Source: Azospirillum sp. (GTDB taxonomy: Bacteria; Pseudomonadota; Alphaproteobacteria; CACIAM-22H2). From it: DNA of 64,000 nucleotides. The stretch is from the NCBI GenBank assembly GCA_020249045.1, contig JADCGK010000049.1, positions 9,112 to 73,111 on the forward strand, in the 5' to 3' direction. The position numbers were made by a program, and so were the translations under genes. The first letter of the stretch is position 1; the number at the start of each line of letters is the position of its first letter. The notes under the pieces were generated by a model. It had not been told where the DNA came from. It saw only the letters and a list, made by a program, of their open reading frames with translations, and made no database searches. Below are positions 4,961-48,830 of this stretch, one piece after another.

Positions 4961-5955
4961 TTGTCCGCGCCCCCGTGCAGGCGGATGCGCGGATCGAGTG
5001 CCGCAAGCGCCAGATCGGACAGGAATACGCCGATCACGATCAACGTCGCCTCGATCATCAGGAACGACCCGGCCAGGAACATATCCTGGCTGCGCAACGC
5101 CGAAAGCAGCATCGGGCCGTTGGTCGGCAGGCTCATGACCACCGAGACGATCGCCGCCCCCGAGATCATCTGCGGCAGCAGATCCCCGATATCCGCGATG
5201 AACGGGTTCAGCGCCATGCGCAGCGGATACTTCATCAACGCGCGGCCCGGCGGCAGGCCCTTGGCGCGCGCGGTGGTCACGTACTGCTTCTGGAGCTCGT
5301 CCAACAGATTGGCGCGCAATCGCCGGATCATCGCCGCCGTGCCGGACGTTCCGATCACGAGCACCGGGATCCACAGATGCTCGAGTACGGACAGGAACTT
5401 GCCCCAGCTCATCGGCTGATCGACGTACTCGGGATCCATCAGGCCGCCGATCGCCGTCCCGAACCACACATTGGCGAGATAGAGCATCACCAGCGCCAGC
5501 AGGAATGACGGCGTGGCGAGCCCCAGGAAGCCGAGCAAGGTGAGCCCGTAATCGCCCCACGAGTACTGGCGCGTGGCCGAATAGATGCCGATCGGAAACG
5601 CCACGATGTAGGTGAACAGGACCGTCGCGAAGCCGACGACGAAGCTCAACAGCAGCCGATCGCCGATCACCGCGTTGACCGGCAGATCGTATTCGAACGA
5701 CCAGCCGAGATCGCCCTGCAGCAGCCCGATCAGCCAGATGCCGTAGCGTTCGACCGGCGTCTTGTCCAAATGGTACTGCGCGCGCAGCGCTTGCGCGCGT
5801 TCGGCGGCGCCGCGTTCGCCTTGGGCCTCGAGTTCGGCGATCTGCGTCGTCAGGAAATCGCCCGGCGGAAGCTGGATGATGGTGAAGACGATGGCGCTGA
5901 TCGCCAAGAGCGTGGGGATCATCACCAGCACGCGGCGCGCGAGATAGGCGAACAT
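4957..5955 (-). CDS. yejB: Peptide ABC transporter permease, YejB-like
   Basis: MFAYLARRVLVMIPTLLAISAIVFTIIQLPPGDF N-terminus and EAA-like loop typical of DppB/YejB permeases. Confidence 0.85.
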   Translation of the reverse strand: MFAYLARRVLVMIPTLLAISAIVFTIIQLPPGDFLTTQIAELEAQGERGAAERAQALRAQYHLDKTPVERYGIWLIGLLQGDLGWSFEYDLPVNAVIGDRLLLSFVVGFATVLFTYIVAFPIGIYSATRQYSWGDYGLTLLGFLGLATPSFLLALVMLYLANVWFGTAIGGLMDPEYVDQPMSWGKFLSVLEHLWIPVLVIGTSGTAAMIRRLRANLLDELQKQYVTTARAKGLPPGRALMKYPLRMALNPFIADIGDLLPQMISGAAIVSVVMSLPTNGPMLLSALRSQDMFLAGSFLMIEATLIVIGVFLSDLALAALDPRIRLHGGADK

Positions 5956-5967
5956 CGATCCCTCCCC

Positions 5968-7887
5968 CTACCGCGCGGCGGCCGCGGCGGCGCCCGCGCG
6001 CCGCTCGCCGTCGAACCAGAACGTGTCCATCCGATGCATGCCGAAGAAGGCGCCGGGATCCCATGCCCAAATGCCCTCGCGCGGCACGTTGCGCAGCCGG
6101 TTGGTCACGACGATGGGCTGCGGCACGCCCGCGACGATCCCGATCGTCCACACGTTCTCGGCGTGGTTGGCGAGCAGGCGCCGCCAGATCTCGGCGCGCG
6201 CCGCGCGCCCGGGCGCATCGGCCCACGCTGCGGCCAGGTCGAGCAATTCGCGCGCCTCGGGCATGTCCACGGGCTCGCCGCGCTGCCCGCCGGTCTCGAA
6301 ATGCAGACCCCATTTCGGCCATTGCAACGCGACTTGCTCGACGGGCGCGAACTCGTCCGGGGCGAAATCGGCCGAGGCGAGGCCGTTCTCGATTCCGGAC
6401 CAGACGGCCATGCGGGTTTCGCCCGATGCGGCGCGGTTGCGCAGGATCGTGCGCTGCTGGGGCCGCGAATAGAGCTTCACGCCGGCTTTGAGCCACGTAT
6501 CGTGGATCAGTTCGAGGACGTCGGTCTGCTCGGCGTCCTCCCCGGCGGTTTCGACGACGATCTCCATCGGCCGCCCGTCGGGAAGCAGCCGCACGCCGCG
6601 CGCGTCGCGCCGCACGAGGCCGATTTCGTCGAGCAACCGGTTCGCCGCCGCCAGATCGAAGCGGTGCCAATCCTCGCGCAGGTGCCGCTCGTAGAGCGGG
6701 CTTTGCGGCAGCACCGTATTCGCCCCTTCGATCGCAAGGCCGAAATAGACCACCATGTTGATCTCGCGGCGGTCGATCGCCAGGGACAGCGCGCGGCGCA
6801 AGCGCACGTCGCGGAACAGGCCGCGCCAAACCGGATCGTTGGCGTTGAGGTTGGGATAGAGCGCCACATGCGCGCCGCGCGCCGGTCGCCACAGCCGCGT
6901 GTCGAAATCGTTGCGTTTGCCCGCCTGACGCAGGAACGTGTAGTGCGAGAAATTGACGTTCCGGGCCTGCAGATCGGCCTCGCCCGCGCCGGTTTTGGCG
7001 GCGAGGATCTTGCCGTCGGCGATGTTCAGGATCGCGCGGTCGATGTAGGGCAGTTGCCGACCCTGCGGGTCGACGCGGTGGTAATAGGGATTGCGATCGA
7101 ACACGAAGCGTTCGGAGGGCGCGCGCGTACGCACGACCCAGGGATCGAGCGTCGGCAGATCCGGATTGTCGTTGCGGTCGAGCTTGTCCAAACGGTTGAA
7201 CAACTGCGCCCAGTTGCGCGCGTTGGCGCGCCGCACGGCCTCGCGCAGCCGCTCGGGGTCGGCGTACCTGGCGTGCAGCGTCTTCAGATAATGCGCGGGG
7301 CGGTAGATATAGAGCGGCGCGGGTCCGGCCAGCGCCGGCACGAACGCCGGGTTCGGCGCATCCCATTCGAACACCACCGTCGTCGCGTCGGGGAACGAGA
7401 CGCGCGGCGGCTTGTCGTCGGCGAGCAAGGCTTTGGGCAGGCCTTGCGGCGCGAGTTCGGCGTTGTTGGCGACGTCCTCCCACCAGAATCGGAAATCCTC
7501 GGCCGTGAACGGCGCGCCGTCCGACCACCGATGGCCCCGGCGCAGATTGAAGACGAAGACCCTGTCGTTTTCGACGCGGAAGGATTCGAGGATGTCGGGC
7601 ACCAGCGCCAGCGCGCCGTCATACCCGATCAGGCGCGCATAGCCGTAGACCGAAAGCAGGCGGGTGTCCTGGGTGCGGCCCGACAGCAGCCGCAACTCCC
7701 CGCCGTGCCGGCCCGGCGTCCAATCCGCGCGCGCCACGTGCGTGACGAGCGGCGTTTCGGGCAGGCGTTTTTCGAGCGGCGGCAGCCGGCCGGCCGCGAC
7801 CTCGGCGGCCAGCGCGGGCGGCTCGACATAGTTGGCCCAGGCGGGCCCCGCGCACAGCGCCAATGCGAGTGCGAGCCGGCGGATCAT
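5968..7887 (-). CDS. yejA: Family-5 periplasmic substrate-binding protein, YejA-like
   Basis: Signal peptide [18 protein letters not shown]. The roughly 620-aa mature protein has SBP_bac_5 characteristics. The start overlaps the yejF stop (ATGA). Confidence 0.85.
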   Translation of the reverse strand: MIRRLALALALCAGPAWANYVEPPALAAEVAAGRLPPLEKRLPETPLVTHVARADWTPGRHGGELRLLSGRTQDTRLLSVYGYARLIGYDGALALVPDILESFRVENDRVFVFNLRRGHRWSDGAPFTAEDFRFWWEDVANNAELAPQGLPKALLADDKPPRVSFPDATTVVFEWDAPNPAFVPALAGPAPLYIYRPAHYLKTLHARYADPERLREAVRRANARNWAQLFNRLDKLDRNDNPDLPTLDPWVVRTRAPSERFVFDRNPYYHRVDPQGRQLPYIDRAILNIADGKILAAKTGAGEADLQARNVNFSHYTFLRQAGKRNDFDTRLWRPARGAHVALYPNLNANDPVWRGLFRDVRLRRALSLAIDRREINMVVYFGLAIEGANTVLPQSPLYERHLREDWHRFDLAAANRLLDEIGLVRRDARGVRLLPDGRPMEIVVETAGEDAEQTDVLELIHDTWLKAGVKLYSRPQQRTILRNRAASGETRMAVWSGIENGLASADFAPDEFAPVEQVALQWPKWGLHFETGGQRGEPVDMPEARELLDLAAAWADAPGRAARAEIWRRLLANHAENVWTIGIVAGVPQPIVVTNRLRNVPREGIWAWDPGAFFGMHRMDTFWFDGERRAGAAAAAAR

Positions 7888-9800
7888 GCGCCGACCCGGG
7901 GCCGCGCGAAGCGGCGCAAGGTTCCGGGACCGGTGCCGATCCGCGCGCGGACGTAATGCCCATGGCCGAGATCGACGAGACCGGCGGCGTTCGCCGCGTC
8001 GATCGTGAAGGGATCGGGCCACAAGGCGGGCACGGAGGCGCGCCCCTCCATCAACGCGGTCAGATCGAGCGGCCGGTCGATATCGGGCTCGGGCACGGCC
8101 GAGAGCAGGGCTTGGGTATAGGGATGGATCGGTTCGCGGAACAGGCGCGCGCGCGGAGCGATTTCCACGATGCGCCCCGCGCACATCACCGCGATCCGGT
8201 CGGCCATGTAGTCGACGACCGCGAGATTGTGGCTGACGAAAATGTAGGTCAGGCCCAGCGCCTTCTTCAGGTCCTGAAGCAGGTTCAGCACTTGCGCCTG
8301 GATCGACACGTCGAGTGCCGACACCGGCTCGTCGAGCAGCAGCATCTCCGGGCCCAGCGCCAACGCGCGCGCGATGCCGATGCGCTGGCGCTGCCCGCCG
8401 GAGAACGAGTGCGGATAGCGGTTGAGGGCGCGGTCGTCCAAGCCGACCACGCGCATCAACTCGCGCACCGTTTCCCGGCGCGTGGCGGCGTCGCCGATGT
8501 CGTGGATCACCAGCGGCTCGGCGACGATGTCGAACACCGTCATGCGCGGATTGAGCGACCCGAAAGGATCCTGGAACACGAATTGGACCTTGCGGCGGTA
8601 CTCGAAAAGCTCGGCGCCCGCGAGCGCGCGCACGTCGCGCCCGTCGTAGACGATGCGGCCCGAATCCGGGGCGAGCGCGCGCATGATCATCTTCGAAACG
8701 GTGGTCTTCCCGCAGCCCGACTCGCCCACCAGCCCAAGGCACTCGCCGCGCAAGACGTCGAACCCGACATCGTCGACCGCACGCACGGTCTGCGGCGCGC
8801 CCGCGCCGAACAGGCCGGATTTGCGGATCGTGTAGGTCTTCTGCAGTCCGCGCACCGACAGCAGGGCTTCGCGGCGCTCGGCGCCGGCCGGACCGTCGAC
8901 CCGGTTGCGCCGCTCCGGCCCGAAATCGCGTTTGCGCATCATCGCGCCCAGATCCGTCTTGATCTCGCGCAGCGGCACAAGGCGTTCGCCGGGCTTCATG
9001 TCGAAGCGCGGCACGGCGGCGAGCAACGCCTTCAGGTAGGGATGCTCGGGCTTGCGGAAGATATCCTCGCGCGCGCCCGCCTCCATCACGCGGCCGCGAT
9101 ACATCACGACGACCTCGTCGGCCAGGTTGGCGACGACGCCCAGGTCGTGGGTGATCAGCAGGATCGCCATGCCCAGATCGGCCTGCAGATCCTTCAGCAG
9201 CTTCAGGATCTGCGCCTGGATCGTCACGTCCAGCGCCGTCGTCGGCTCGTCGGCGATCAGCAAAGCGGGGCTGCAGACCAGCGCCATCGCGATCATCGCG
9301 CGCTGGCGCAAACCGCCCGACAATTCGAACGGGTAGGTCTTGAGGGCCTTGGCCGGATCCGGGAAGCCGACCTTGCGCAGCATGTCTTCGGCCAGATGCC
9401 TCGCTTCGGTCTTGTCCTTGGTGCGGTGCAGGCGCACGGCTTCGACGATCTGATCGCCGACCGTGTGCAGCGGCGACAGCGAGGTCATCGGTTCTTGGAA
9501 GATGATCGAAATCCGGCCGCCGCGGATCCGGCGGAACTCCGCACCGTCCGGGTCGAGCGCGGCGAGATCGGTTTCCGTGCCCTTGTCGCGGAACAGCATG
9601 TGGCCGCGCGCGATCCGCCCGACCTTCGGCAGGATGCCCATCAGCGCCTGGCTGACGACCGTTTTGCCCGATCCCGACTCGCCCACCACCGCGACCGTCG
9701 ATCCCGGCCGGATGCGGAAGTCCACGCCGTCCACGGCCTTGATCCGCGTTTCGTGCACGCGAAAATCGATGGCCAGGTCGCGGACCTCGAGCAAGTTCAT
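7884..9800 (-). CDS. yejF: Duplicated-ATPase ABC protein, YejF-like
   Basis: Two complete nucleotide-binding domains: GESGSGKT and GESGCGKTT Walker A, two LSGG signatures, two DEP Walker B, plus oligopeptide C-terminal extensions. 638 aa. Confidence 0.9.
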
Positions 9801-10279
9801 GATCCGGCGTCGATCCCCATGGCTTGCAGGTTTTCGGCCGTCGCGGGATCGAAGACCAGCCCGCGCGCGCGCGCCGCCGCGTGCGCCGCCGCGACCAGGC
9901 CCGCGAAGTTTTCCCCCGAGGAATCCGCGCGCACGCGCCCGGCGGTGCCGGCCAGTTTGAGCTGCATCCATCCCCCCGCACGGTCCCGGGTGGTCGCGTA
10001 GAATGCGAGCCGGAAATCGCGCATCTCGTCCCATGGGAGCCTAGCCGCTCCCGGACCCGAAAGCGACACGCCCGTCGCATCCCAGGTCACGCGTTGGCGG
10101 CCGCGGCGGAACGTGCGCAGCGCGAAACCCGCGAACAGACCCGCGAGCGGCACCAGAACCCAATGCGCCGCCGTCCATTCGCCCAAGGCGATCGCCGGCG
10201 TCAGCGTGAATGCGAGCCCGACGGCCGCGCGCGCGTAGTCCCCGATCAGCGCCTTGGGCGGATAGCGCAAAACGTTCAT
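9797..10279 (-). CDS. Hypothetical small membrane protein (2 predicted TM helices)
   Basis: A 160-aa ORF with two hydrophobic helices (AAVGLAFTLTPAIALG and WVLVPLAGLFAGFAL). Its stop overlaps the yejF start (ATGA). Confidence 0.45.
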   Translation of the reverse strand: MNVLRYPPKALIGDYARAAVGLAFTLTPAIALGEWTAAHWVLVPLAGLFAGFALRTFRRGRQRVTWDATGVSLSGPGAARLPWDEMRDFRLAFYATTRDRAGGWMQLKLAGTAGRVRADSSGENFAGLVAAAHAAARARGLVFDPATAENLQAMGIDAGS

Positions 10280-11031
10280 GGGCGCGACGCGAAAACGTCC
10301 TCGGGCGCGCGCCAGCGCGCCGCACGATGGGCGGCGATCCGTCGCAGCGCCGCTTGCGTGAAGGTCCACGCCGCTTCGTCGTGGGCCAGATGGTGGGTCA
10401 GCAATCCGGTCGGCTCGGCCGGATCGGCGGCGCCATCGAGCTTGGCGCGCAAATGGCCCACCAACGCGCCCAAGGCGGGGCCTTCGCCCGCGAACGCGCG
10501 CGTGTTCCAATCCATGATGTCGCAATGCGCGTTGATCTGGACGAGGCCGGCGGGGACGGCCTTGCGCGCGCCGAAGGTCGACAGGCCGCGATAGCCCGCG
10601 CGCGGGAGTTCGACGGCGATTTCGGGCGCGATGCGGTTGTGCGGCGGGACGAGCACGGGCAACGCCGCGGCATAAAGCGCGCGCAATCGCAGCCAACCCC
10701 GCGCCAACTCGCCCAACACCATCGCGGGCGGCCGATGCGCGCCCAGTTCGGCCTTCGGCGCCCCCAATGGCGCATGATTGTCGTGGTTCCAGCCATGCTG
10801 GCAGATCGCAAGCCCGGGCTCGGCCGCGAGTTCGGCCACGGCGCGCGCCGGAATCACCGCGATCAACGGCCGCACGCCGGTCGCGCGCGCGAGGGCGGTC
10901 AGGCGCGCGAACGCGGGCACGGGCAGGGTCGCGTCGTCGTCGCGCCACCATAGTTCGGCGGTTTTGCCGGCGGCGGCGTAGGCGTCGAGCGCGCGGTCCA
11001 GATCGGTCCAGTCGGCTTGGATCATAACCAT
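10276..11031 (-). CDS. Putative polysaccharide-deacetylase-like protein (tentative family call)
   Basis: A 251-aa ORF (MVMIQADWTDL...WWRDDDATLP...HGWNHD). The D-D and H-x-x-H arrangement is reminiscent of the carbohydrate esterase/deacetylase fold. Not confirmed. Confidence 0.4.
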   Translation of the reverse strand: MVMIQADWTDLDRALDAYAAAGKTAELWWRDDDATLPVPAFARLTALARATGVRPLIAVIPARAVAELAAEPGLAICQHGWNHDNHAPLGAPKAELGAHRPPAMVLGELARGWLRLRALYAAALPVLVPPHNRIAPEIAVELPRAGYRGLSTFGARKAVPAGLVQINAHCDIMDWNTRAFAGEGPALGALVGHLRAKLDGAADPAEPTGLLTHHLAHDEAAWTFTQAALRRIAAHRAARWRAPEDVFASRP

Positions 11032-36984: not shown

Positions 36985-38244
36985 TTAAACCGCTGCCGTT
37001 TTCGCGGAACCGCGCGTTGCCTTCGTGCCCGACCGGCCGTCGGCCGGCAGCCAGCGGCGCACCAACCGCTCGACGTTCTCGAGCCCGTCGAGCAGACCCG
37101 GGATGACCGACGCCGAGGGCGGTTGCTGACCGTCGAGCGCCTGCAATGCGGCGACCATGGCGCCGGTCGCGCGGATGCCGTCGTCGGGCAGCATGCGCGT
37201 GAGGCCCAGCGCTTGCGCGCGCTCGGCGCGGATCGATTGCTCCAGCCGGGGCGCGATGCGGGGCACGATCACCGCGGGCTTGTCGAAGGACAGGATCTCG
37301 CAAAACGTGTTGTAACCGCCCATCGCCACGACGCCCGCGGCGCGCACAATCAATTGTTCCATATGCGCGTCGAAGGTGATCGCTTCGACGCGCCGGCCCA
37401 AGCGCTGCACGCGCTGCTGGAATTCGGCTTGGCGTTCGGACTGCATGAAGGGTCCGAGCACCAGCAGCGCGCGGTGCGGCAGTTTCTCGCCCGACTCGTA
37501 GGCGCGCAAAACCCAATCGATCAGCGCTTCGCCGTCGCCCCCGCCGCCCGGCGTGACGAGCACATAGGGCCGCTCGCGTTCGCGCGCGCGGTCGACGATC
37601 GCGCGCGGCGCCGCCAGCGGAATCGAGCGGCGCAGATAGCCCGTGTAGCTCATCTTCGCGCGCACTTCGGGCGGAATGACGAGACCTTCGAGCGGATCGC
37701 ACATCTGCGGCAATCCGTAGACCCAGATGTCGTCGTACAGGTCGCGCAACGCCGGGACGGCCTTCTTGCGTTTCCATTCGGGTTCGAGCAGCGCCGGATC
37801 GTCCATCACGTCGCGCAAGCCCAACACCAGGGGCACGCCTTGCGCCTTCAAGTCGCGCAGCGTGTCGGCGACCTCGCCGCGCAGGCCCAGAGGCTCTTTG
37901 TCGACGATGAAAAGATCGGGTGCGAACGCCGCCGCCGTGTGGCGGATGATCGAGGCGCGGATGGCCAGGGTCTGGCAGAAATCGATATGCAGATTGAGCG
38001 ACGTGTATTCGCCGTTGCGCAGCTTGACGACCCCCGGCACGCGCACGAAATCCACGCGCGCCTTGAAGTCGAACGAACCGATGATCGGCGATCCCGACAG
38101 GATCAGCACCGACAGATCCTTGTCGGCCTCGACCAGCGCGTGCGCGATCGTACGGCAACGGCGCAGATGCCCGAGACCCATCGTGTCGTGGCTATAGATC
38201 AAGACCCGACGGTCGGCGCCGGCGCGCTTGCTCGGATTTGCCAT
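36985..38244 (-). CDS. Predicted glycosyltransferase, MurG/GT28-like (COG4671-type), paralog of 11022-12110
   Basis: RVLIYSHDTMGLGHLRRCRTIAHAL Gly-rich N-terminus and the GT-B C-terminal domain (GGYNTFCE). 419 aa. Ends 1 nt from the convergent flippase-like gene. Confidence 0.6.
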   Translation of the reverse strand: MANPSKRAGADRRVLIYSHDTMGLGHLRRCRTIAHALVEADKDLSVLILSGSPIIGSFDFKARVDFVRVPGVVKLRNGEYTSLNLHIDFCQTLAIRASIIRHTAAAFAPDLFIVDKEPLGLRGEVADTLRDLKAQGVPLVLGLRDVMDDPALLEPEWKRKKAVPALRDLYDDIWVYGLPQMCDPLEGLVIPPEVRAKMSYTGYLRRSIPLAAPRAIVDRARERERPYVLVTPGGGGDGEALIDWVLRAYESGEKLPHRALLVLGPFMQSERQAEFQQRVQRLGRRVEAITFDAHMEQLIVRAAGVVAMGGYNTFCEILSFDKPAVIVPRIAPRLEQSIRAERAQALGLTRMLPDDGIRATGAMVAALQALDGQQPPSASVIPGLLDGLENVERLVRRWLPADGRSGTKATRGSAKTAAV

Positions 38245-38375: not shown

Positions 38376-41078
38376 ATGGACTTCCTGGGGGGATTTCTAA
38401 TCTTGCGCGACGGCGGCGAACTCGACCGGTCGATATTCCGGTTCGTCTGGCGGTTCTCGGTCAAGGAGACGGTGCTCGTCTGCCTGTTGGTCGCGGTCGC
38501 GCAGGTTTTCTATTACGTCACGCTGAACCTGCCGAAGAACATCATGAACCAGGGCATCGAGGGCCGCGGGATGAGCTATCCCACGGAGGTCCTCGGGCTC
38601 TTCCAGTTCGACCAGATCGGCTATTTGCTCTGGCTGTGCGGGTTGTTCTTTCTGGCCGTGCTGGTCAATGGCGGGCTCAAGCAATACATCAACTCGCTGA
38701 AGGGCAAGCTCGGCGAACGGCTGCTGCGCCGTCTGCGCTACGCGCTCGTCGAGCGCATCCTGCGCTTTCCGGTTCCGCATTTCCGCAAGGTGTCGTCGGG
38801 CGAATTGATCCCGATGGTGACCGCCGAGGTCGAGCAGGTCGGCGGCTTCATGGGCGACGCCTACGTCCATCCGCTGATGCAAGCGGCGATGCTGCTGACG
38901 ATCGCCACGTTCCTTTTCGTGCAGAACCCGATCATGGGTCTCGCGGCGATCTCGCTTTATCCGTTCCAGGCCTACATCGTGCCCAAGCTGCAAAAGCGCG
39001 TGAAGGCGCTGGGCAAGGAACGGATCAAAGCGGTGCGCAAAGTGTCCGAGCGCATCGGCGAAACGGTCGGCGGCATCCAGGAAGTGCGCACCGCCGGTAC
39101 GGCGGCGTGGGAACGCGCGGACTACGCCGAACGTTTCGGGACGATCTTCCGCATCCGCTTCGACATCTATCAGCGCAAGTCGCTGGTCAAGTTCATCAAC
39201 AACTTCCTGAATCAGTGCGCGCCGCTGCTGTTCTATTCCATCGGGGGCTATCTCGTGATCCGGGGCGAGTTGACGCTGGGCGCCCTGGTGGCCGCACTCA
39301 CCGCGCACAAGGACATGACGGCACCCTGGAAGGAATTGCTCGACTACTATCAGGCGGCCCAGGACGCGCAGCAGAAATACGAGCAGGTCGTCGAACAATT
39401 CCGTCCGGAAGCGATGCTGCCCGCGGCGCTTCAGGATCTGCCCGCGGAGCCGGCCCCGGGCCTGTCGGGCCCGATCGTGCTGTCGGGCGTCGGCGTGCAG
39501 GAGGACGCGCAGACCAAGCTGCTCGAATCGATCAGCCTGACGATCGATCCGGGCGCCCGGGTCGCGCTTGCGGGGCCCGCGGGCGGCGGACGCGAGGCGC
39601 TCGCCATGGCGCTCGCGCGGCTGCACATCGTCTCCGGCGGTTCGATCAAGATCGGCGGGCGCGATCTGGCGCGCCTGCCCGATGCGCATATCGGCGCCTC
39701 GCTCGGTTATGTCGGGCCGGCGGCCTATCATTTCTCGGCGAGCGTGCGCGAGAACCTCGTCTACGGATTGCGTCAACGCCCCGTCGTGGCACCGGATGCG
39801 CGCGATCCCGCGCGCGCGCGGTGGCTCGCCGAGGCCGCACGCGCGGGCAATCTCGATCTCGACGTCAACGACGAGTGGATCGATTACGCGCGCGCGGGGG
39901 CGGCGGACGCCGCCGCCTTCGACGCGATCGCCGCACGATTGCTCGAGAAGGTCGATCTGGCCGAGGACGTGTTCGTCTTCGGACTGCGCGGGCGCATCGA
40001 TCCCAAATCGAAGCCGGCGGTGGCCGAGGCGATCCTCGCCGCGCGCGCCGCGTTCCGCCGGCGTCTGGCGGGTCCCGATGCCGACCCCGCGCTCAAAGGC
40101 CTCGTCGAGCCGTTCGATCCGGCGGCCTACAACGAAAACGCCACCGTCGCCGAAAACCTGTTGTTCGGCACGCCGCTCGATCCGGCCTTCGAAACCGACG
40201 CGCTGTCGGGCCAGCCGGACTTCCTGGCGGTCTTGCGCGCGCGCGGGCTCGAGGAGGTGTTCGTCGAAATGGGCCGCAAGGTCGCGGAGATCATGGTCGA
40301 GCTTTTCGCCGATCTTCCGGCGGGCCACGAGTTTTTCGAGCGGTTCAGCTTCATCGCCGCCGACGACCTGTCGGTCTATCAGGCGATCCTTGCGCGCACG
40401 GCCCCCGGGCCGGACGGCGCGCCATCGGCCGTCGTCGGCGAGGACCGCGCGCGGATGCTGGGGTTGCCGCTCAAACTCGTCAACGCGCGCCATCGTTTGG
40501 GATTGATCGACGCGGCCTTCAAGGCGCGCGTGCTCGAAGCGCGCGCGGCCTTCGCCGGCGCCAAGGCGACCCAGGGCAAGATCGCGTTCTTCGATCCGGA
40601 CGCCTACAACGCCGCCGCGTCGATCCAGGACAACATTCTGTTCGGCCGCGTCGCCTACGGCCAAGCCAAGGCGCAAGCCACCGTCGCCAAGGCGATGCGC
40701 GACCTGCTCGACACGATGGGCTTGCGCGAACGGATCTTCGAAGTGGGGCTCGAATTCCAGGTCGGCGTCGGCGGCGCGCGCCTGTCGCCCGCGCAGCGCC
40801 AGAAACTGGCGCTGGCCCGCGCGCTCGCCAAGCGGCCGGACGTGTTGGTGCTGAACGACGCCTTCGCGGCGATCGATCCGGCGGGCCAATGGCGCGCGCT
40901 CGAAGGCACGCTCGCCGCCGCGGGTTCCGCCACCGTGATCGCCTCGATGGGCGATTCGCGCATGGCGGAGAAATTCGCGCGGACGATCGTGCTGGCGGAC
41001 GGCCGCGTGGCGCAGGACGGCGACTTCGCCGGACTGGCGGCCGCGGACGGGCCGTTCAAGGAAACGCTGTCGGGCTGA
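38376..41078 (+). CDS. ABC type-I-exporter-like protein: 6-TM domain fused to an enlarged, catalytically degenerate nucleotide-binding-like domain
   Basis: Residues 1-345 form a typical ABC_membrane TMD. Residues 398-409 are Walker A-like, GPAGGGREAL (Lys/Ser replaced). The signature is LSPAQ instead of LSGGQ, at 40782-40796. Walker B is VLVLNDAF, with no catalytic Glu. There is no H-loop His. The Q-loop-like segment xxP.AY...S[VI].[ED]N[LI]L[FY]G occurs three times (aa 444-464, 577-598, 737-757). Confidence 0.7.
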   Translation: MDFLGGFLILRDGGELDRSIFRFVWRFSVKETVLVCLLVAVAQVFYYVTLNLPKNIMNQGIEGRGMSYPTEVLGLFQFDQIGYLLWLCGLFFLAVLVNGGLKQYINSLKGKLGERLLRRLRYALVERILRFPVPHFRKVSSGELIPMVTAEVEQVGGFMGDAYVHPLMQAAMLLTIATFLFVQNPIMGLAAISLYPFQAYIVPKLQKRVKALGKERIKAVRKVSERIGETVGGIQEVRTAGTAAWERADYAERFGTIFRIRFDIYQRKSLVKFINNFLNQCAPLLFYSIGGYLVIRGELTLGALVAALTAHKDMTAPWKELLDYYQAAQDAQQKYEQVVEQFRPEAMLPAALQDLPAEPAPGLSGPIVLSGVGVQEDAQTKLLESISLTIDPGARVALAGPAGGGREALAMALARLHIVSGGSIKIGGRDLARLPDAHIGASLGYVGPAAYHFSASVRENLVYGLRQRPVVAPDARDPARARWLAEAARAGNLDLDVNDEWIDYARAGAADAAAFDAIAARLLEKVDLAEDVFVFGLRGRIDPKSKPAVAEAILAARAAFRRRLAGPDADPALKGLVEPFDPAAYNENATVAENLLFGTPLDPAFETDALSGQPDFLAVLRARGLEEVFVEMGRKVAEIMVELFADLPAGHEFFERFSFIAADDLSVYQAILARTAPGPDGAPSAVVGEDRARMLGLPLKLVNARHRLGLIDAAFKARVLEARAAFAGAKATQGKIAFFDPDAYNAAASIQDNILFGRVAYGQAKAQATVAKAMRDLLDTMGLRERIFEVGLEFQVGVGGARLSPAQRQKLALARALAKRPDVLVLNDAFAAIDPAGQWRALEGTLAAAGSATVIASMGDSRMAEKFARTIVLADGRVAQDGDFAGLAAADGPFKETLSG

Positions 41079-41089
41079 GGAGAAACGCG

Positions 41090-41551
41090 ATGTCGATCAA
41101 GGAAGAAACCGACGCGCTCAAGCGCATTCCGCTGTTCGCGAAGCTCGACTCGGCGAAGCTCAAACTGCTCGCGTTCATGAGCCAGCGTCTGAGCTTCGAT
41201 CCCGGCCAAGCCGTGTTCGCGCAGGGCGATTCGGGGGATGCCGCCTATATCGTGCTGGAGGGCGAGGCGGTCGTGTCGATCGACACGCCCGGCGGCCCCA
41301 TCGAAATCGCGCGTCTGCTCAAGAACGAGATCGTCGGGGAGATCGCCATTCTGTGCGACGTTCCGCGCACCGCGCATGTGCGCGCGTCGGGTACGGCGCC
41401 GCTCGTTTGCCTGAAGATCGAGAAGGACGATTTCATGGCCTTGGTGAACGAGTTCCCGTCGATGGGGGTGGAGATCATGCGCGAATTGGCGCGTCGCATC
41501 GTCAGGAGCAACGCGCAATTGCGCCAGGCGATGGCGGCCAAAAGCGCGTGA
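41090..41551 (+). CDS. Stand-alone cyclic-nucleotide-binding (CAP effector-like) domain protein
   Basis: A 153-aa protein with the FAQGDSGDAAYIVLEGEAVV...GEIAIL...RTAHVRA cNMP-binding beta-roll and phosphate-binding cassette. An RBS GAGGAG precedes the ATG, which lies 12 nt after the ABC-like gene stop. Confidence 0.75.
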   Translation: MSIKEETDALKRIPLFAKLDSAKLKLLAFMSQRLSFDPGQAVFAQGDSGDAAYIVLEGEAVVSIDTPGGPIEIARLLKNEIVGEIAILCDVPRTAHVRASGTAPLVCLKIEKDDFMALVNEFPSMGVEIMRELARRIVRSNAQLRQAMAAKSA

Positions 41552-41617
41552 AGCGTTTCGGATAGGTCACCGCGCGTTTTTCGCCGCACGCCGACATCGA
41601 CCCGTGCGAAACAGCAC

Positions 41618-46091: not shown

Positions 46092-47081
46092 TCAGGCGGC
46101 GGATTTGTCGGTCTCGGGCGTGTCGCCGCGGGTCTTCCACAGCGAGTACAGGATGCCGCCCGTGATCAGCGAGACGGTCACCGACAGCGAGAACCACGCC
46201 GGCATCTTGCCGATGATCCCGACCAGGAAGATCTTGCAGCCGATGAAGATCAGCACGAAGGACAGCGCGTACTTCAGATACTTGAAGCGGTGGATCATCG
46301 CCGCCAGCGCGAAGTAAAGCGAGCGCAGGCCCAGGATCGCGAAGATGTTCGACGTGTAGACGATGAACGGGTCCTGCGTGATCGCGAAGATCGCCGGAAC
46401 CGAGTCGACCGCGAAGATCAGGTCGACGGTTTCGACCAGCACCAGGCACAGGAACAGCGGCGTGGCCCAGCGCACCATCTTGCCCGTCGTCGGGTCCGGG
46501 CGCGTCACGAAGAACTTCTGCCCGTCGAGGTCCGGCGTCACGCGCATGCGCTTCTTGAGGAAGTTCAGCACGGGATTCTCGCCGAAATTCTCCTCCTTGT
46601 CGGCCATCCACAGCATCTTGGCGCCGGTGAACACCAGGAACGCGCCGAAGATGTAGAGGATCCACTGGAACTGCGCGACCAGCGCTGCACCCAGGCCGAT
46701 CATGATCCCGCGCATCACGATCACGCCCAGGATGCCCCAGAACAGCACGCGGTGCTGGTACTTCCGGGGAACGGCGAAATACGTGAAGATCATCGAGATC
46801 GCGAAGACGTTGTCGAGCGACAGCGACCATTCGACGAAGAAGCCGGTGTAGTACTCAAGACCCGACTGGGGCCCCATGTACCACCACACCCAACCGCCGA
46901 AGAGCATCGCGAGCGCGAAGTAGAAGCCCGACAGTTTCAGGCTTTCCGCAACCTCGATTTCCTTGGTGTCCTTGTGCAGGACGCCCAAATCGAAAATCAG
47001 CAGTGCCGCGACGATCCCAAGAAAGGCCGCCCACATCCACACGGGCTTGCCCAAAAATTCGTTGGCGAACAGAAATTCCAT
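46092..47081 (-). CDS. TerC/Alx-family integral membrane protein (copy 1)
   Basis: MEFLFANEFLGKPVWMW...SLDNVFAI...AVDSVPAIFAIT, the TerC family signature. 329 aa. Confidence 0.8.
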   Translation of the reverse strand: MEFLFANEFLGKPVWMWAAFLGIVAALLIFDLGVLHKDTKEIEVAESLKLSGFYFALAMLFGGWVWWYMGPQSGLEYYTGFFVEWSLSLDNVFAISMIFTYFAVPRKYQHRVLFWGILGVIVMRGIMIGLGAALVAQFQWILYIFGAFLVFTGAKMLWMADKEENFGENPVLNFLKKRMRVTPDLDGQKFFVTRPDPTTGKMVRWATPLFLCLVLVETVDLIFAVDSVPAIFAITQDPFIVYTSNIFAILGLRSLYFALAAMIHRFKYLKYALSFVLIFIGCKIFLVGIIGKMPAWFSLSVTVSLITGGILYSLWKTRGDTPETDKSAA

Positions 47082-47284
47082 GACCCCGGTCCGTTTTTGG
47101 GCCCGAACGCCGTCGATTCCCCATGAATCGGGAGCGGACGGGCCATTGCGTTTTCCCCACTGAAGTCCGACATCGCGGCGCCGAAGCTGACCCAGTTTCC
47201 CAGCGGGTGGAAACATGAGCCGGAAGGCGCGCCGCCAGAGGGGCCCGGACCCGATTAAGGCGTAAATGGGGCGGGGGTACCCCA

Positions 47285-47634: not shown

Positions 47635-48642
47635 TCAAGCGCCGCTCCCGCTCTTGGCCGGGGCGGGGGCCGCGTCGCCGCGCGTCTTCCACAACGAGTA
47701 GCCCACGCCCGCGGCCAGGATCGCGAAGGTGATCGACAGCGACCACGCGGGCGGGAACTTGTCGAGGCCCATGAGGTCGGCGACGAAGATCTTCGATCCG
47801 ATGAAGACCAGCAGCACGGCCAATGCGTACTTCAGGTACTTGAAGCGGTGCACCATCGCGGCCAACGCGAAGTAGAGCGCGCGCAACCCGAGGATCGCGA
47901 AGATGTTGGACGTGTAGACGATGAACGGATCGGTGGTGATCGCGAAGATCGCCGGAACCGAATCGACCGCGAAGATCACGTCGGCGATTTCGATCAGCAC
48001 AAGCGCCAGGAACAGCGGCGTCGCCCAGGTGACGGTCTTGCCCGTCTTCGGATCGGGCTTGCGCACGAAGAACTTCTCGCCCTCCAGCGTTTCGGTCACG
48101 CGCATGCGCCGCTTCATCCAGCCGATCAGCGGATTGGCGCCGACGTCGTACTCCTTGTCCGCCATGATCCACATCTTCACGCCGGTGACGATCAGGAACG
48201 CGGCGAAGATGTAAAGCACCCACGAGAACTGCGCGACGAGCGTGGCGCCCAGACCGATCATGATCGCGCGCAACACGATGACGCCCAAAATGCCCCAGAA
48301 CAGAACGCGATGCTGGTAAAGGCGCGGGACGGCGAAATACGCGAAGATCATCGCGATGACGAAGACGTTGTCCATCGCCAGCGTCTTCTCGACGACGAAG
48401 CCGGTCACATACTCGACGGCCGAGTCGCGGCCGAGATTCCACCAAACCAAGCCGCCGAAGCCGAGGCCCATCGCGATGTAACCCGCCGACAAGACGAGGC
48501 TTTCGCGCACTTCGATTTCGCGGTTGTCGCGGTGGAGCACGCCCAAATCGAACGCCAGCAAGGCGACGACGATGCCCAGGAAGCCCCACCACATCCATGC
48601 GGGCTTGCCCAAAAAATCAGCCAAAAACAGAGACTCGATCAT
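47635..48642 (-). CDS. TerC/Alx-family integral membrane protein (copy 2)
   Basis: MIESLFLADFLGKPAWMW...AMDNVFVI...AVDSVPAIFAIT. 335 aa. About 65% identical to copy 1 by eye. Confidence 0.8.
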   Translation of the reverse strand: MIESLFLADFLGKPAWMWWGFLGIVVALLAFDLGVLHRDNREIEVRESLVLSAGYIAMGLGFGGLVWWNLGRDSAVEYVTGFVVEKTLAMDNVFVIAMIFAYFAVPRLYQHRVLFWGILGVIVLRAIMIGLGATLVAQFSWVLYIFAAFLIVTGVKMWIMADKEYDVGANPLIGWMKRRMRVTETLEGEKFFVRKPDPKTGKTVTWATPLFLALVLIEIADVIFAVDSVPAIFAITTDPFIVYTSNIFAILGLRALYFALAAMVHRFKYLKYALAVLLVFIGSKIFVADLMGLDKFPPAWSLSITFAILAAGVGYSLWKTRGDAAPAPAKSGSGA

Positions 48643-48830
48643 TCCGCCTAGCCCCTCCTGAGGGCGCGAAAGAGCGTTTCGAAGGCCGGACCGACATCGC
48701 GCGCGCCAAGTGCACGCCAGAGGGGCCCGGATTCCGGCCGTTGTTCTGCGGAGATGGCGTCCCGCGCCGCGCTCCGCAAGGGGGGCGTCCGAAAAATCGG
48801 ACGCCAAATCGCATCAGAACCCAAATCGTA

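Follow-up and report, generated by a model that had tools for sequence, protein, structure and literature searches.

Several ATP-binding cassette (ABC) importers are controlled by a small dimeric ligand-binding domain that lies C-terminal to the nucleotide-binding domain (NBD) and governs the approach of the two NBDs. Such domains are generally known from MetN (the C2 domain), ModC and MalK, and they provide the nearest mechanistic analogy for the gene pair that we describe here. The pair is found in a stretch of 64,000 nucleotides from Azospirillum sp. (contig JADCGK010000049.1, positions 9,112 to 73,111), hereafter called the window, in which the gene for a stand-alone cyclic-nucleotide-binding (CNB) protein directly follows the gene for a protein with an ABC-exporter fold. 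In orthologues in which the two proteins are fused, the CNB domain occupies exactly the C-terminal regulatory position of MetN, ModC and MalK, and the CNB protein of the window is probably a regulatory subunit of its ABC neighbour. However, MetN, ModC and MalK belong to importers whose ATPase sites are canonical, and the regulatory domains there are of unrelated folds and recognize either EIIA or the substrate being transported, whereas the pair described here combines a CNB fold with an exporter-fold half-transporter that has degenerate ATP sites, and in the window the regulator is a separate polypeptide.

Other membrane transport proteins are likewise controlled by a C-terminal cytoplasmic CNB domain. 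MloK1, SthK and the HCN/CNG channels resemble the fused form of the pair in this respect, but they are tetramers with a voltage-gated-like pore, whereas the ABC-CNB proteins have an ABC exporter fold and are expected to be dimers. The pair is a member of neither the MetN/ModC/MalK families nor the MloK1/SthK/HCN families. CFTR is generally known as an ABC-fold protein with an impaired ATP site, as in the pair, and its activity is ultimately controlled by cyclic AMP (cAMP). Nevertheless, CFTR senses cAMP through phosphorylation of its R domain by PKA and retains one active ATP site, and the homology extends to the ABC fold only.

CNB domains on ABC exporters have been described before. HetC of Nostoc PCC 7120 is a type IV ABC exporter with a PF00027 domain that is needed for function (PMC10986499). 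This ppGpp-binding domain is N-terminal in HetC, where it precedes a C39 peptidase, and the catalytic Glu of the exporter is essential; HetC has neither the NBD insert described below nor a split form. TIGR03896 (cyc_nuc_ocin, "bacteriocin-type transport-associated protein") is, like the window protein, a soluble protein composed only of CNB domains. However, it has two such domains in a model of 317 positions, and the window protein, which scores 41.1 bits against a cut-off of 161, is not a member. We take TIGR03896 proteins to be cyanobacterial, to be encoded beside ABC exporter genes and to accompany NHLP/peptide exporters. Mycobacterial Rv0073 and Rv2564 may be fusions of ABC proteins with domains that bind cyclic nucleoside monophosphates (cNMPs), but a review makes no mention of a cNMP domain, and these unconfirmed cases are not used as evidence.

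The CNB protein itself resembles the effector domains of the CRP/FNR family in its beta-roll and long C-helix, in its cassette residues and in the Thr/Ser positions of that helix. It differs in that it has no helix-turn-helix (HTH) and ends after the C-helix, and it scores 28 bits against a cut-off of 266 for the CRP equivalog model. PKA and PKG carry tandem CNB-A and CNB-B domains together with an inhibitor or kinase segment, whereas the window protein is a single CNB domain whose matches in the Protein Data Bank (PDB) cover one CNB domain at a time.

We define the ABC(insert)-CNB family by a CNB gene that lies directly downstream of, or is fused to, an insert-bearing ABC gene, and the window contains such a pair. 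Full-text literature searches, some of them directed at cNMP/ABC pairings, gave no publication on this family, and only HetC and general reviews surfaced. An earlier reading of the window from its sequence alone (the sequence-only reading) considered the pairing undescribed. This seems true of the family, but "wholly undescribed" would be too strong, because HetC and TIGR03896 are on record and fused orthologues are present in RefSeq. What is new here is a C-terminal CNB regulator, split or fused, whose ABC partner has an exporter fold and a remodelled, degenerate NBD. To our knowledge, stand-alone CNB proteins are common in bacteria and almost none has an assigned partner. In this case genomic evidence by itself, namely an invariant operon and recurrent fusion, identifies the partner with a confidence that is unusual.

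The CNB protein and its pairing with an ABC gene

The features of the pair are as follows.

38376..41078, forward strand: ABC-exporter-fold protein, 900 amino acids (aa), with a transmembrane domain (TMD) and an NBD-like domain (Pfam, NCBIfam, AlphaFold2)
41077..41082, forward strand: GAGGAG Shine-Dalgarno sequence of the CNB gene (read from the sequence)
41090..41551, forward strand: CNB gene, encoding the stand-alone cyclic-nucleotide-binding protein of 153 aa (ATG-to-TGA open reading frame, Pfam, AlphaFold2)
41336..41386, forward strand: phosphate-binding cassette, aa 83-99, GEIAILCDVPRTAHVRA (alignment of 79 orthologues)
41456..41545, forward strand: C-terminal helix, aa 123-152, the equivalent of the CRP C-helix (AlphaFold2 model and CRP alignment)

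The open reading frame at 41090..41551 is not a chance occurrence, because homologues of its product number in the thousands and 78 other genomes encode an orthologue of about 150 aa (33-84% identity) at the corresponding place. GAGGAG overlaps the TGA stop codon of the ABC gene (41076-41078), and the ATG of the CNB gene lies 7 nt further downstream. The spacer between the genes is 11 nt (41079-41089), and counted from the final A of the stop codon, the ATG therefore begins at the twelfth nucleotide. Both the 12-nt distance and the separate GAGGAG ribosome-binding site had been noted in the sequence-only reading, and the coordinates agree with it. Its further proposal that the two genes are co-transcribed gains support from the conserved adjacency and short gaps described next. 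A promoter and terminator scan detected no promoter-like sites and no forward-strand terminator-like sites within or near the junction.

A profile search with the ABC protein, in which each GTDB species was represented by a single genome, confirmed at least 583 relatives, and the locus counts given here rest on the best 80 of these loci (ABC identity 43-76%). They derive from Tagaea, Telmatospirillum, Azospirillum, Thalassobaculum, Nisaea, Stellaceae, Sneathiella and many alphaproteobacterial metagenome-assembled genomes (MAGs), and the loci with the pair span the Rhodospirillales. By tblastn, a CNB orthologue is located directly downstream of the ABC gene and on the same strand at 78 of the 80 loci. 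The gap between ABC stop and CNB start has a median of 28 nt and is 50 nt or less at 66 of these 78 loci. All 78 CNB proteins are 147-166 aa long, and a purine-rich sequence resembling a Shine-Dalgarno element precedes each start. As for the two exceptions, one (L011) reaches the contig edge 116 nt beyond the ABC gene, and the other (L062) is a relocated ABC copy beside an MBOAT gene, with neither a CNB gene nor the glycosyltransferase gene discussed below. The same arrangement is present at L081, on a 523-kb metagenomic contig with 86% ABC identity, and at P0294, a deep-branching unfused ABC member with a gene for a 149-aa CNB protein 31 nt downstream. The ABC-CNB pairing is thus real and old, and the conserved co-occurrence on which the sequence-only reading depended is found across related genomes.

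The two genes are also fused in some organisms. We searched the NBD insert of the ABC protein alone against 1.84 billion cluster representatives with phmmer, which gave 789 matches with E<=1e-3, of which 160 had E<=1e-30; fusion counts rest on the top 149. Among these, 16 full-length proteins have about 990-1206 aa instead of the usual ~880, and all nine of the long proteins examined with Pfam contain ABC_membrane, ABC_tran and a C-terminal cNMP_binding domain. BLASTP with the window CNB protein finds a C-terminal CNB domain in 27 of the 149 representatives, fragments included. This Rosetta-stone pattern, with the CNB domain C-terminal to the NBD, supports the earlier proposal that the ABC-like protein is the partner. 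The fused CNB domains align over essentially all 153 aa at 30-44% identity, are tethered to the NBD by a linker of ~30 aa, and have in common with the split forms a family-specific motif, [KR]LKLLAF[TA]SER. Moreover, a hidden Markov model (HMM) built from stand-alone orthologues only gives most fused domains 110-169 bits and two CRP regulators ~60 bits. The fused and split CNB domains are orthologous, because the stand-alone HMM scores the fused domains far above the CRPs. Among cultured bacteria, Thalassospira species, Roseospira marina and Bosea psychrotolerans have fused forms, as do many metagenomic lineages, and the RefSeq names of these proteins are generic ("ABC transporter transmembrane domain-containing protein" or "cyclic nucleotide-binding domain-containing protein"). 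A rough neighbour-joining tree, calculated from the ABC part, intersperses them with unfused forms at four or more positions, a count that is approximate given the long branches. This distribution suggests repeated fusion or fission of the two genes.

Two of the fused proteins, P0313 (1206 aa) and P0323 (1156 aa), are ABC-CNB-GGDEF triple fusions with a degenerate GGDEF domain, which in P0313 apparently has no GGDEF/GGEEF motif. These examples hint that the C-helix of the CNB domain can also drive, or merely tether, a module of the type associated with cyclic di-GMP (c-di-GMP).

The only domain that Pfam recognizes in the window CNB protein is cNMP_binding (PF00027), which spans aa 34-121 and profile positions 2-88 of 89 with 63.4 bits (E 2e-17), above the gathering cut-off of 27.5. 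No HTH, other DNA-binding, kinase, channel or other output domain was found by Pfam, in line with the sequence-only description of a single cNMP-binding domain with no output domain. The NCBIfam matches are partial and sub-threshold, and they involve the CNB portions of Pat, TIGR03896, CRP, FtrB and encapsulin 2B. An AlphaFold2 model made with 36 homologues has a mean predicted local distance difference test (pLDDT) score of 87, and consists of N-terminal helices, an eight-stranded beta-roll, a short helix and the long C-terminal helix of aa 123-152. Foldseek matches this model in the PDB with CRP-family effector domains and with the CNB domains of PKA RI-alpha and PKG (E ~1e-11). The top match is 2pqq, a truncated CRP-family regulator, followed by CRP of Mycobacterium tuberculosis (Mtb), GlxR and Clr, with template modelling (TM) scores of up to 0.81. 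A sequence-profile search of the PDB agrees with these results and also retrieves SthK and related CNB domains.

The cassette GEIAILCDVPRTAHVRA contains Gly83, Glu84, Arg93, Thr94 and Ala95, which form the Gly-Glu...Arg-Thr-Ala pattern for cyclic-phosphate binding. Across 79 sequences, comprising the window protein and orthologues from 78 loci that are 33-84% identical to it, G83, R93 and A95 are present in all 79, while E84 and T94 are each present in 76, with Ser in the remaining cases at position 94. Hence, the Arg and Ser/Thr residues that the sequence-only reading regarded as decisive for nucleotide binding are in place. These residues align with G71, E72, R82 and S83 of E. coli CRP. The C-helix aligns with "MARRLQVTSEK" of CRP through a family motif, "ARR[IL]xxT[NT]", which places the consensus Thr140 and Asn/Thr141 opposite Thr127 and Ser128 of CRP. 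These two CRP residues contact adenine N6 across the CRP dimer. The C-helix is a probable element for dimerization and signal transmission, and the protein looks like a functional, CRP-style and probably dimeric cNMP receptor. The sequence cannot tell cAMP from cyclic GMP (cGMP) as the ligand.

Based upon these data, the CNB protein is quite probably a receptor for cAMP or cGMP that serves as a separately encoded regulatory subunit of the upstream ABC-exporter-fold protein, because the two genes are neighbours across loci and are fused in other bacteria. The two genes would be transcribed together, and the CNB protein would probably form a CRP-like parallel dimer via its C-terminal helix. This dimer would dock beneath the two NBD-like domains of a homodimeric half-transporter, at the place where the CNB domain is attached in the fused orthologues. 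Binding of a cNMP at the phosphate-binding cassette would move the hinge and the C-helix, as in CRP, PKA and CNG/HCN/SthK, and this motion would bias the NBD-like dimer towards closure or opening and so shift the TMD between inward-facing and outward-facing states. The fold, the conservation of the ligand site, the operon, the fusion and the non-canonical ATP site are observed, whereas we infer which ligand binds, that the protein dimerizes and, when unfused, docks on the NBDs, in which direction it regulates, and what is transported.

ATP site and NBD insert of the ABC partner

In the ABC protein, Pfam matches ABC_membrane at aa 34-309 and ABC_tran as two separate stretches. None of the curated NCBIfam exporter families (MsbA, NHLP exporters, HepA, CydDC, NdvA/ChvA and HlyB) reaches its cut-off, and the best scores, ~171 bits against cut-offs of 600-850, come from partial matches split around an insert in the NBD.

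39768..40610, forward strand: family-specific NBD insert of ~280 aa, ABC aa 465-745, internally duplicated (phmmer, hhalign, AlphaFold2)

The AlphaFold2 model of the ABC protein (pLDDT 71) has a type IV exporter fold in which the insert is mostly helical and moderately confident, with pLDDT of about 65-90 over most of its length. No chain in the PDB matches the insert (aa 465-745). However it folds, its sequence contains an internal duplication, since hhalign detects homology between aa 572-633 and aa 731-792 (97.6%, E 5e-12), with a third short copy of the same segment at aa 448-464. The motif A-[ST]-[IV]-x-[ED]-N-[IL]-L-[FY]-G accordingly appears three times (aa ~454-464, 589-598 and 747-757). 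Judging from these repeats, the insert is the product of tandem duplication of the segment after the Q-loop. As a separate matter, the ABC gene has two possible start codons. The annotated ATG at 38376 gives an N-terminus that is ~9-15 residues longer than in most relatives, and an in-frame TTG near 38403 ("LRDGGELDRS") matches the start of the closest relative, P0125.

The canonical ABC ATPase motifs (GxxGxGK[ST], hhhhDE, LSGGQ and the H-loop His) are not found in the window ABC protein. Its Walker A motif reads GPAGGGRE, with Arg for Lys and Glu for Ser/Thr; Walker B reads LVLND, with Asn for Asp and Asp for the catalytic Glu; the signature reads LSPAQ, and the H-loop His is absent. An alignment of 81 close members of the family gives a mixed picture. 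The Walker A Lys position is Lys in 49 and Arg in 24, the catalytic Glu is kept in 51 and the H-loop His in 40. Nevertheless, the signature Gly-Gly is essentially never present, the Walker A Ser/Thr has given way to Asp or Glu in 69, and at the Walker B Asp position 55 members have Asn, 13 have Ser and seven have Asp. In the wider family (62 full-length representatives), the ATP-site motifs vary almost freely; several proteins have no Walker A and only one looks canonical. Unlike these motifs, the TMD, the coupling regions and the ligand site of the CNB protein are strongly conserved. This pattern fits relaxed selection on catalysis combined with retained selection on cNMP sensing.

The sequence-only reading had called the ABC protein ATPase-dead and suggested that a nucleotide second messenger replaces ATP hydrolysis in controlling the transporter. 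The motifs of the protein are indeed non-canonical and freely evolving, which is consistent with this idea but does not prove a loss of ATP binding or hydrolysis, and the Walker A Lys and the catalytic Glu persist in many relatives. A further observation is that two changes are coupled across the family, namely Walker A Ser/Thr to Asp/Glu (69/81) and Walker B Asp to Asn/Ser (68/81). The coupled Ser/Thr to Asp/Glu and Asp to Asn change may be a compensatory swap of Mg2+ ligands, not simple decay, and a site of this kind could still ligate Mg-ATP.

These data bear directly on an alternative to a conventional regulated exporter, in which the NBDs have lost the catalytic cycle and cNMP binding drives or gates the ABC switch, making the pair a cNMP-gated, ATP-independent translocator or channel. 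This is a strong form of the sequence-only proposal, and we consider it unlikely, although the state of the ATP site is compatible with it. Every catalytic motif of the window protein is altered, the Walker A Ser/Thr and the Walker B Asp are replaced at the family-wide frequencies just given, the motifs are near-freely variable among the 62 representatives while the CNB ligand site is essentially invariant, and both ATP sites would be equally degenerate in the homodimer that is expected. However, Lys, Glu and His are retained in the numbers of relatives given above, the Ser/Thr to Asp/Glu and Asp to Asn pair could still coordinate Mg-ATP, and ATP binding without hydrolysis may still serve dimerization. 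Moreover, uphill transport without an energy source has no known precedent; therefore, an ATP-independent protein would imply facilitated diffusion, flipping or channel activity.

A more specific version of this proposal, which we regard as rather improbable, is that the cNMP receptor, fused or separate, took over the gating role of the ATPase cycle, which would yield a direct bacterial cNMP-gated ABC-fold translocator or channel. The remodelled NBD would then consist of a triplicated helical-subdomain segment with decayed catalytic motifs, in a family that is widespread in alphaproteobacteria. If true, such a translocator could be the missing exporter or valve for the cGMP or cAMP secreted in the Azospirillum clade, or alternatively could translocate a glycoconjugate of the cyst or envelope. 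Whichever mechanism applies, the family offers a natural experiment on the fate of an ABC fold when its ATP site decays while a cNMP sensor stays under strict selection, and a direct test case for whether a second messenger instead of ATP can run this fold.

Ligand, cargo and competing explanations

Returning to the CNB protein as a probable cNMP-responsive subunit of the ABC protein, the genes around the pair provide some indication of what might be transported.

36985..38244, reverse strand: GT-B glycosyltransferase, 419 aa, divergent from the ABC gene (Pfam Glyco_tran_28_C, E 4e-7)

This glycosyltransferase is divergently upstream of the ABC gene at ~70 of the 80 loci (57-83% identity), and its matches in the PDB and NCBIfam are only remote ones to GT-B proteins (GT1/GT28-like), which point to no specific function. 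At 53 of the 80 loci, and also at L081 (13161-13637), a Methyltransf_17 (PF12692) gene encoding ~135-158 aa follows the CNB gene on the same strand. No Methyltransf_17 gene is present in the whole 64-kb window, which looks like a lineage-specific loss of the third gene of the operon. These neighbours suggest that the cargo in most Rhodospirillales is a glycoconjugate, probably made by the divergent glycosyltransferase together with, usually, the Methyltransf_17 protein. It is known that cGMP and cAMP control cyst development in the Azospirillum clade, while the exporters and the envelope-remodelling targets involved have remained unknown. A cNMP-controlled exporter beside a conserved glycosyltransferase is thus a testable candidate for a possible link to cyst biology.

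At fused loci the surroundings are different. The Thalassospira fused gene has an Apyc1-like homologue of cyclic-nucleotide phosphodiesterases with the metallo-beta-lactamase (MBL) fold directly upstream (L084, 5192-5971). Less than 6 kb from a second fused gene (L085), whose 90% cluster includes Bosea psychrotolerans proteins, are genes for a CRP-family regulator and two class III cyclases (5736-10579), and the Roseospira fused gene stands alone, with no such neighbours. The cyclase and phosphodiesterase neighbours support a cyclic nucleotide as the ligand. A conserved phosphodiesterase partner cannot be claimed, as the MBL-fold neighbours of L084 and L087 have only an HxHxDH motif in common. 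The glycosyltransferase and Methyltransf_17 genes are missing at the three fused loci inspected, and because of this the ABC and CNB genes make up the invariant core.

Several points weigh against a cNMP-controlled exporter of glycoconjugates. A CNB fold with a canonical cassette is no guarantee of a cNMP ligand, and in vitro the HetC domain took up ppGpp instead of cAMP (PMC10986499). In tblastn searches with the cyclase, CRP and phosphodiesterase proteins from the fused loci, no cyclase or phosphodiesterase gene was found in the 64-kb window. The partnership is also not universal across the widest family, because the distant ABC branches P0322 and P0319 and the relocated copy L062 have no CNB neighbour. 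Finally, the case for a glycoconjugate is weak, because both the glycosyltransferase and the Methyltransf_17 gene are absent from the inspected fused loci and the latter is absent from the window.

One alternative is that the pair exports cAMP or cGMP itself, with the CNB protein sensing the cytoplasmic level and switching export on, as a substrate-sensing efflux valve. The ABC-CNB family is common in the Azospirillum clade, and one member of this clade, Rhodospirillum centenum, makes and secretes cGMP during encystment (PMC4681086). The phosphodiesterase or the cyclases and CRP regulator beside fused members would also suit such a valve, and eukaryotic ABCC4/5 are generally known to export cNMPs. 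We know of no cGMP exporter identified so far in R. centenum. However, R. centenum is not among the 80 loci retrieved, there is no cyclase in the 64-kb window, and the conserved glycosyltransferase (~70/80) and methyltransferase (53/80) point to a glycoconjugate, making efflux of the messenger itself improbable.

Another alternative concerns the ligand and leaves the partnership with the ABC protein intact. The CNB protein might bind ppGpp, 2-oxoglutarate or another nucleotide, which would place the ABC protein under stringent-response or metabolic control instead of control by cAMP or cGMP. This would parallel the HetC domain, which was unresponsive to cAMP and 2-oxoglutarate but had a Kd of 59 uM for ppGpp (PMC10986499), and effector domains of the CRP/FNR family do take diverse ligands. 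Nevertheless, a non-cyclic ligand appears quite unlikely, given that the canonical cassette, G-E-x-A...P-R-T-A, is essentially invariant and resembles those of PKA, PKG and CRP, and that cyclase or phosphodiesterase genes adjoin two of the three fused loci inspected.

It is very improbable that the CNB protein is an independent soluble cNMP receptor, acting as a cAMP buffer or as an HTH-less partner that heterodimerizes with CRP/FNR proteins via the C-helix, with adjacency reflecting co-expression only: although the N-terminal domains of the CRP family are the closest match to its fold and C-helix (2pqq, Mtb CRP, GlxR and Clr) and the PDB holds stand-alone CNB proteins of unknown partner (5d1i and 3gyd), such a role is hard to reconcile with orthologous CNB domains repeatedly fused to the C-terminus of an ABC membrane protein, with a KLKLLAFTSER-type motif in both split and fused forms, and with adjacency at 78 of 80 loci while other neighbours vary.

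The ABC-CNB pair, taken as a transporter with its own cNMP-receptor subunit, is present in at least several hundred species, including Azospirillum, Thalassobaculum, Nisaea, Tagaea, Thalassospira, Roseospira, Bosea and others, and represents an untouched second-messenger target.

Other observations at the locus and in relatives

An Rfam scan of the locus found no riboswitch or small RNA in the intergenic region between the glycosyltransferase and ABC genes or after the CNB gene. The stop codon of the CNB gene (41551) is separated by 66 nt (41552-41617) from the end of a convergent BenE gene.

The ABC gene of L062 (4962-7754) is located in a Stellaceae MAG, where it is followed by the gene for MBOAT (membrane-bound O-acyltransferase), and the flanking genes encode large proteins to which Pfam assigns no domain. 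This copy may be a paralogue, as other Stellaceae loci have the normal module. The 167-aa protein encoded after P0319 was considered as a CNB domain and rejected (hhalign probability 0.1).

Elsewhere in the window are two Rfam terC RNA motifs (RF03067) on the reverse strand, at 47158-47256 (50.7 bits) and 48682-48738 (41.1 bits), both above the gathering score of 39.9. Each is located just upstream of one of two tandem genes for TerC-family membrane proteins (~46092-47150 and 47635-48680, reverse strand). The true TerC starts lie downstream of the motifs, because the mechanically predicted open reading frames run over them.

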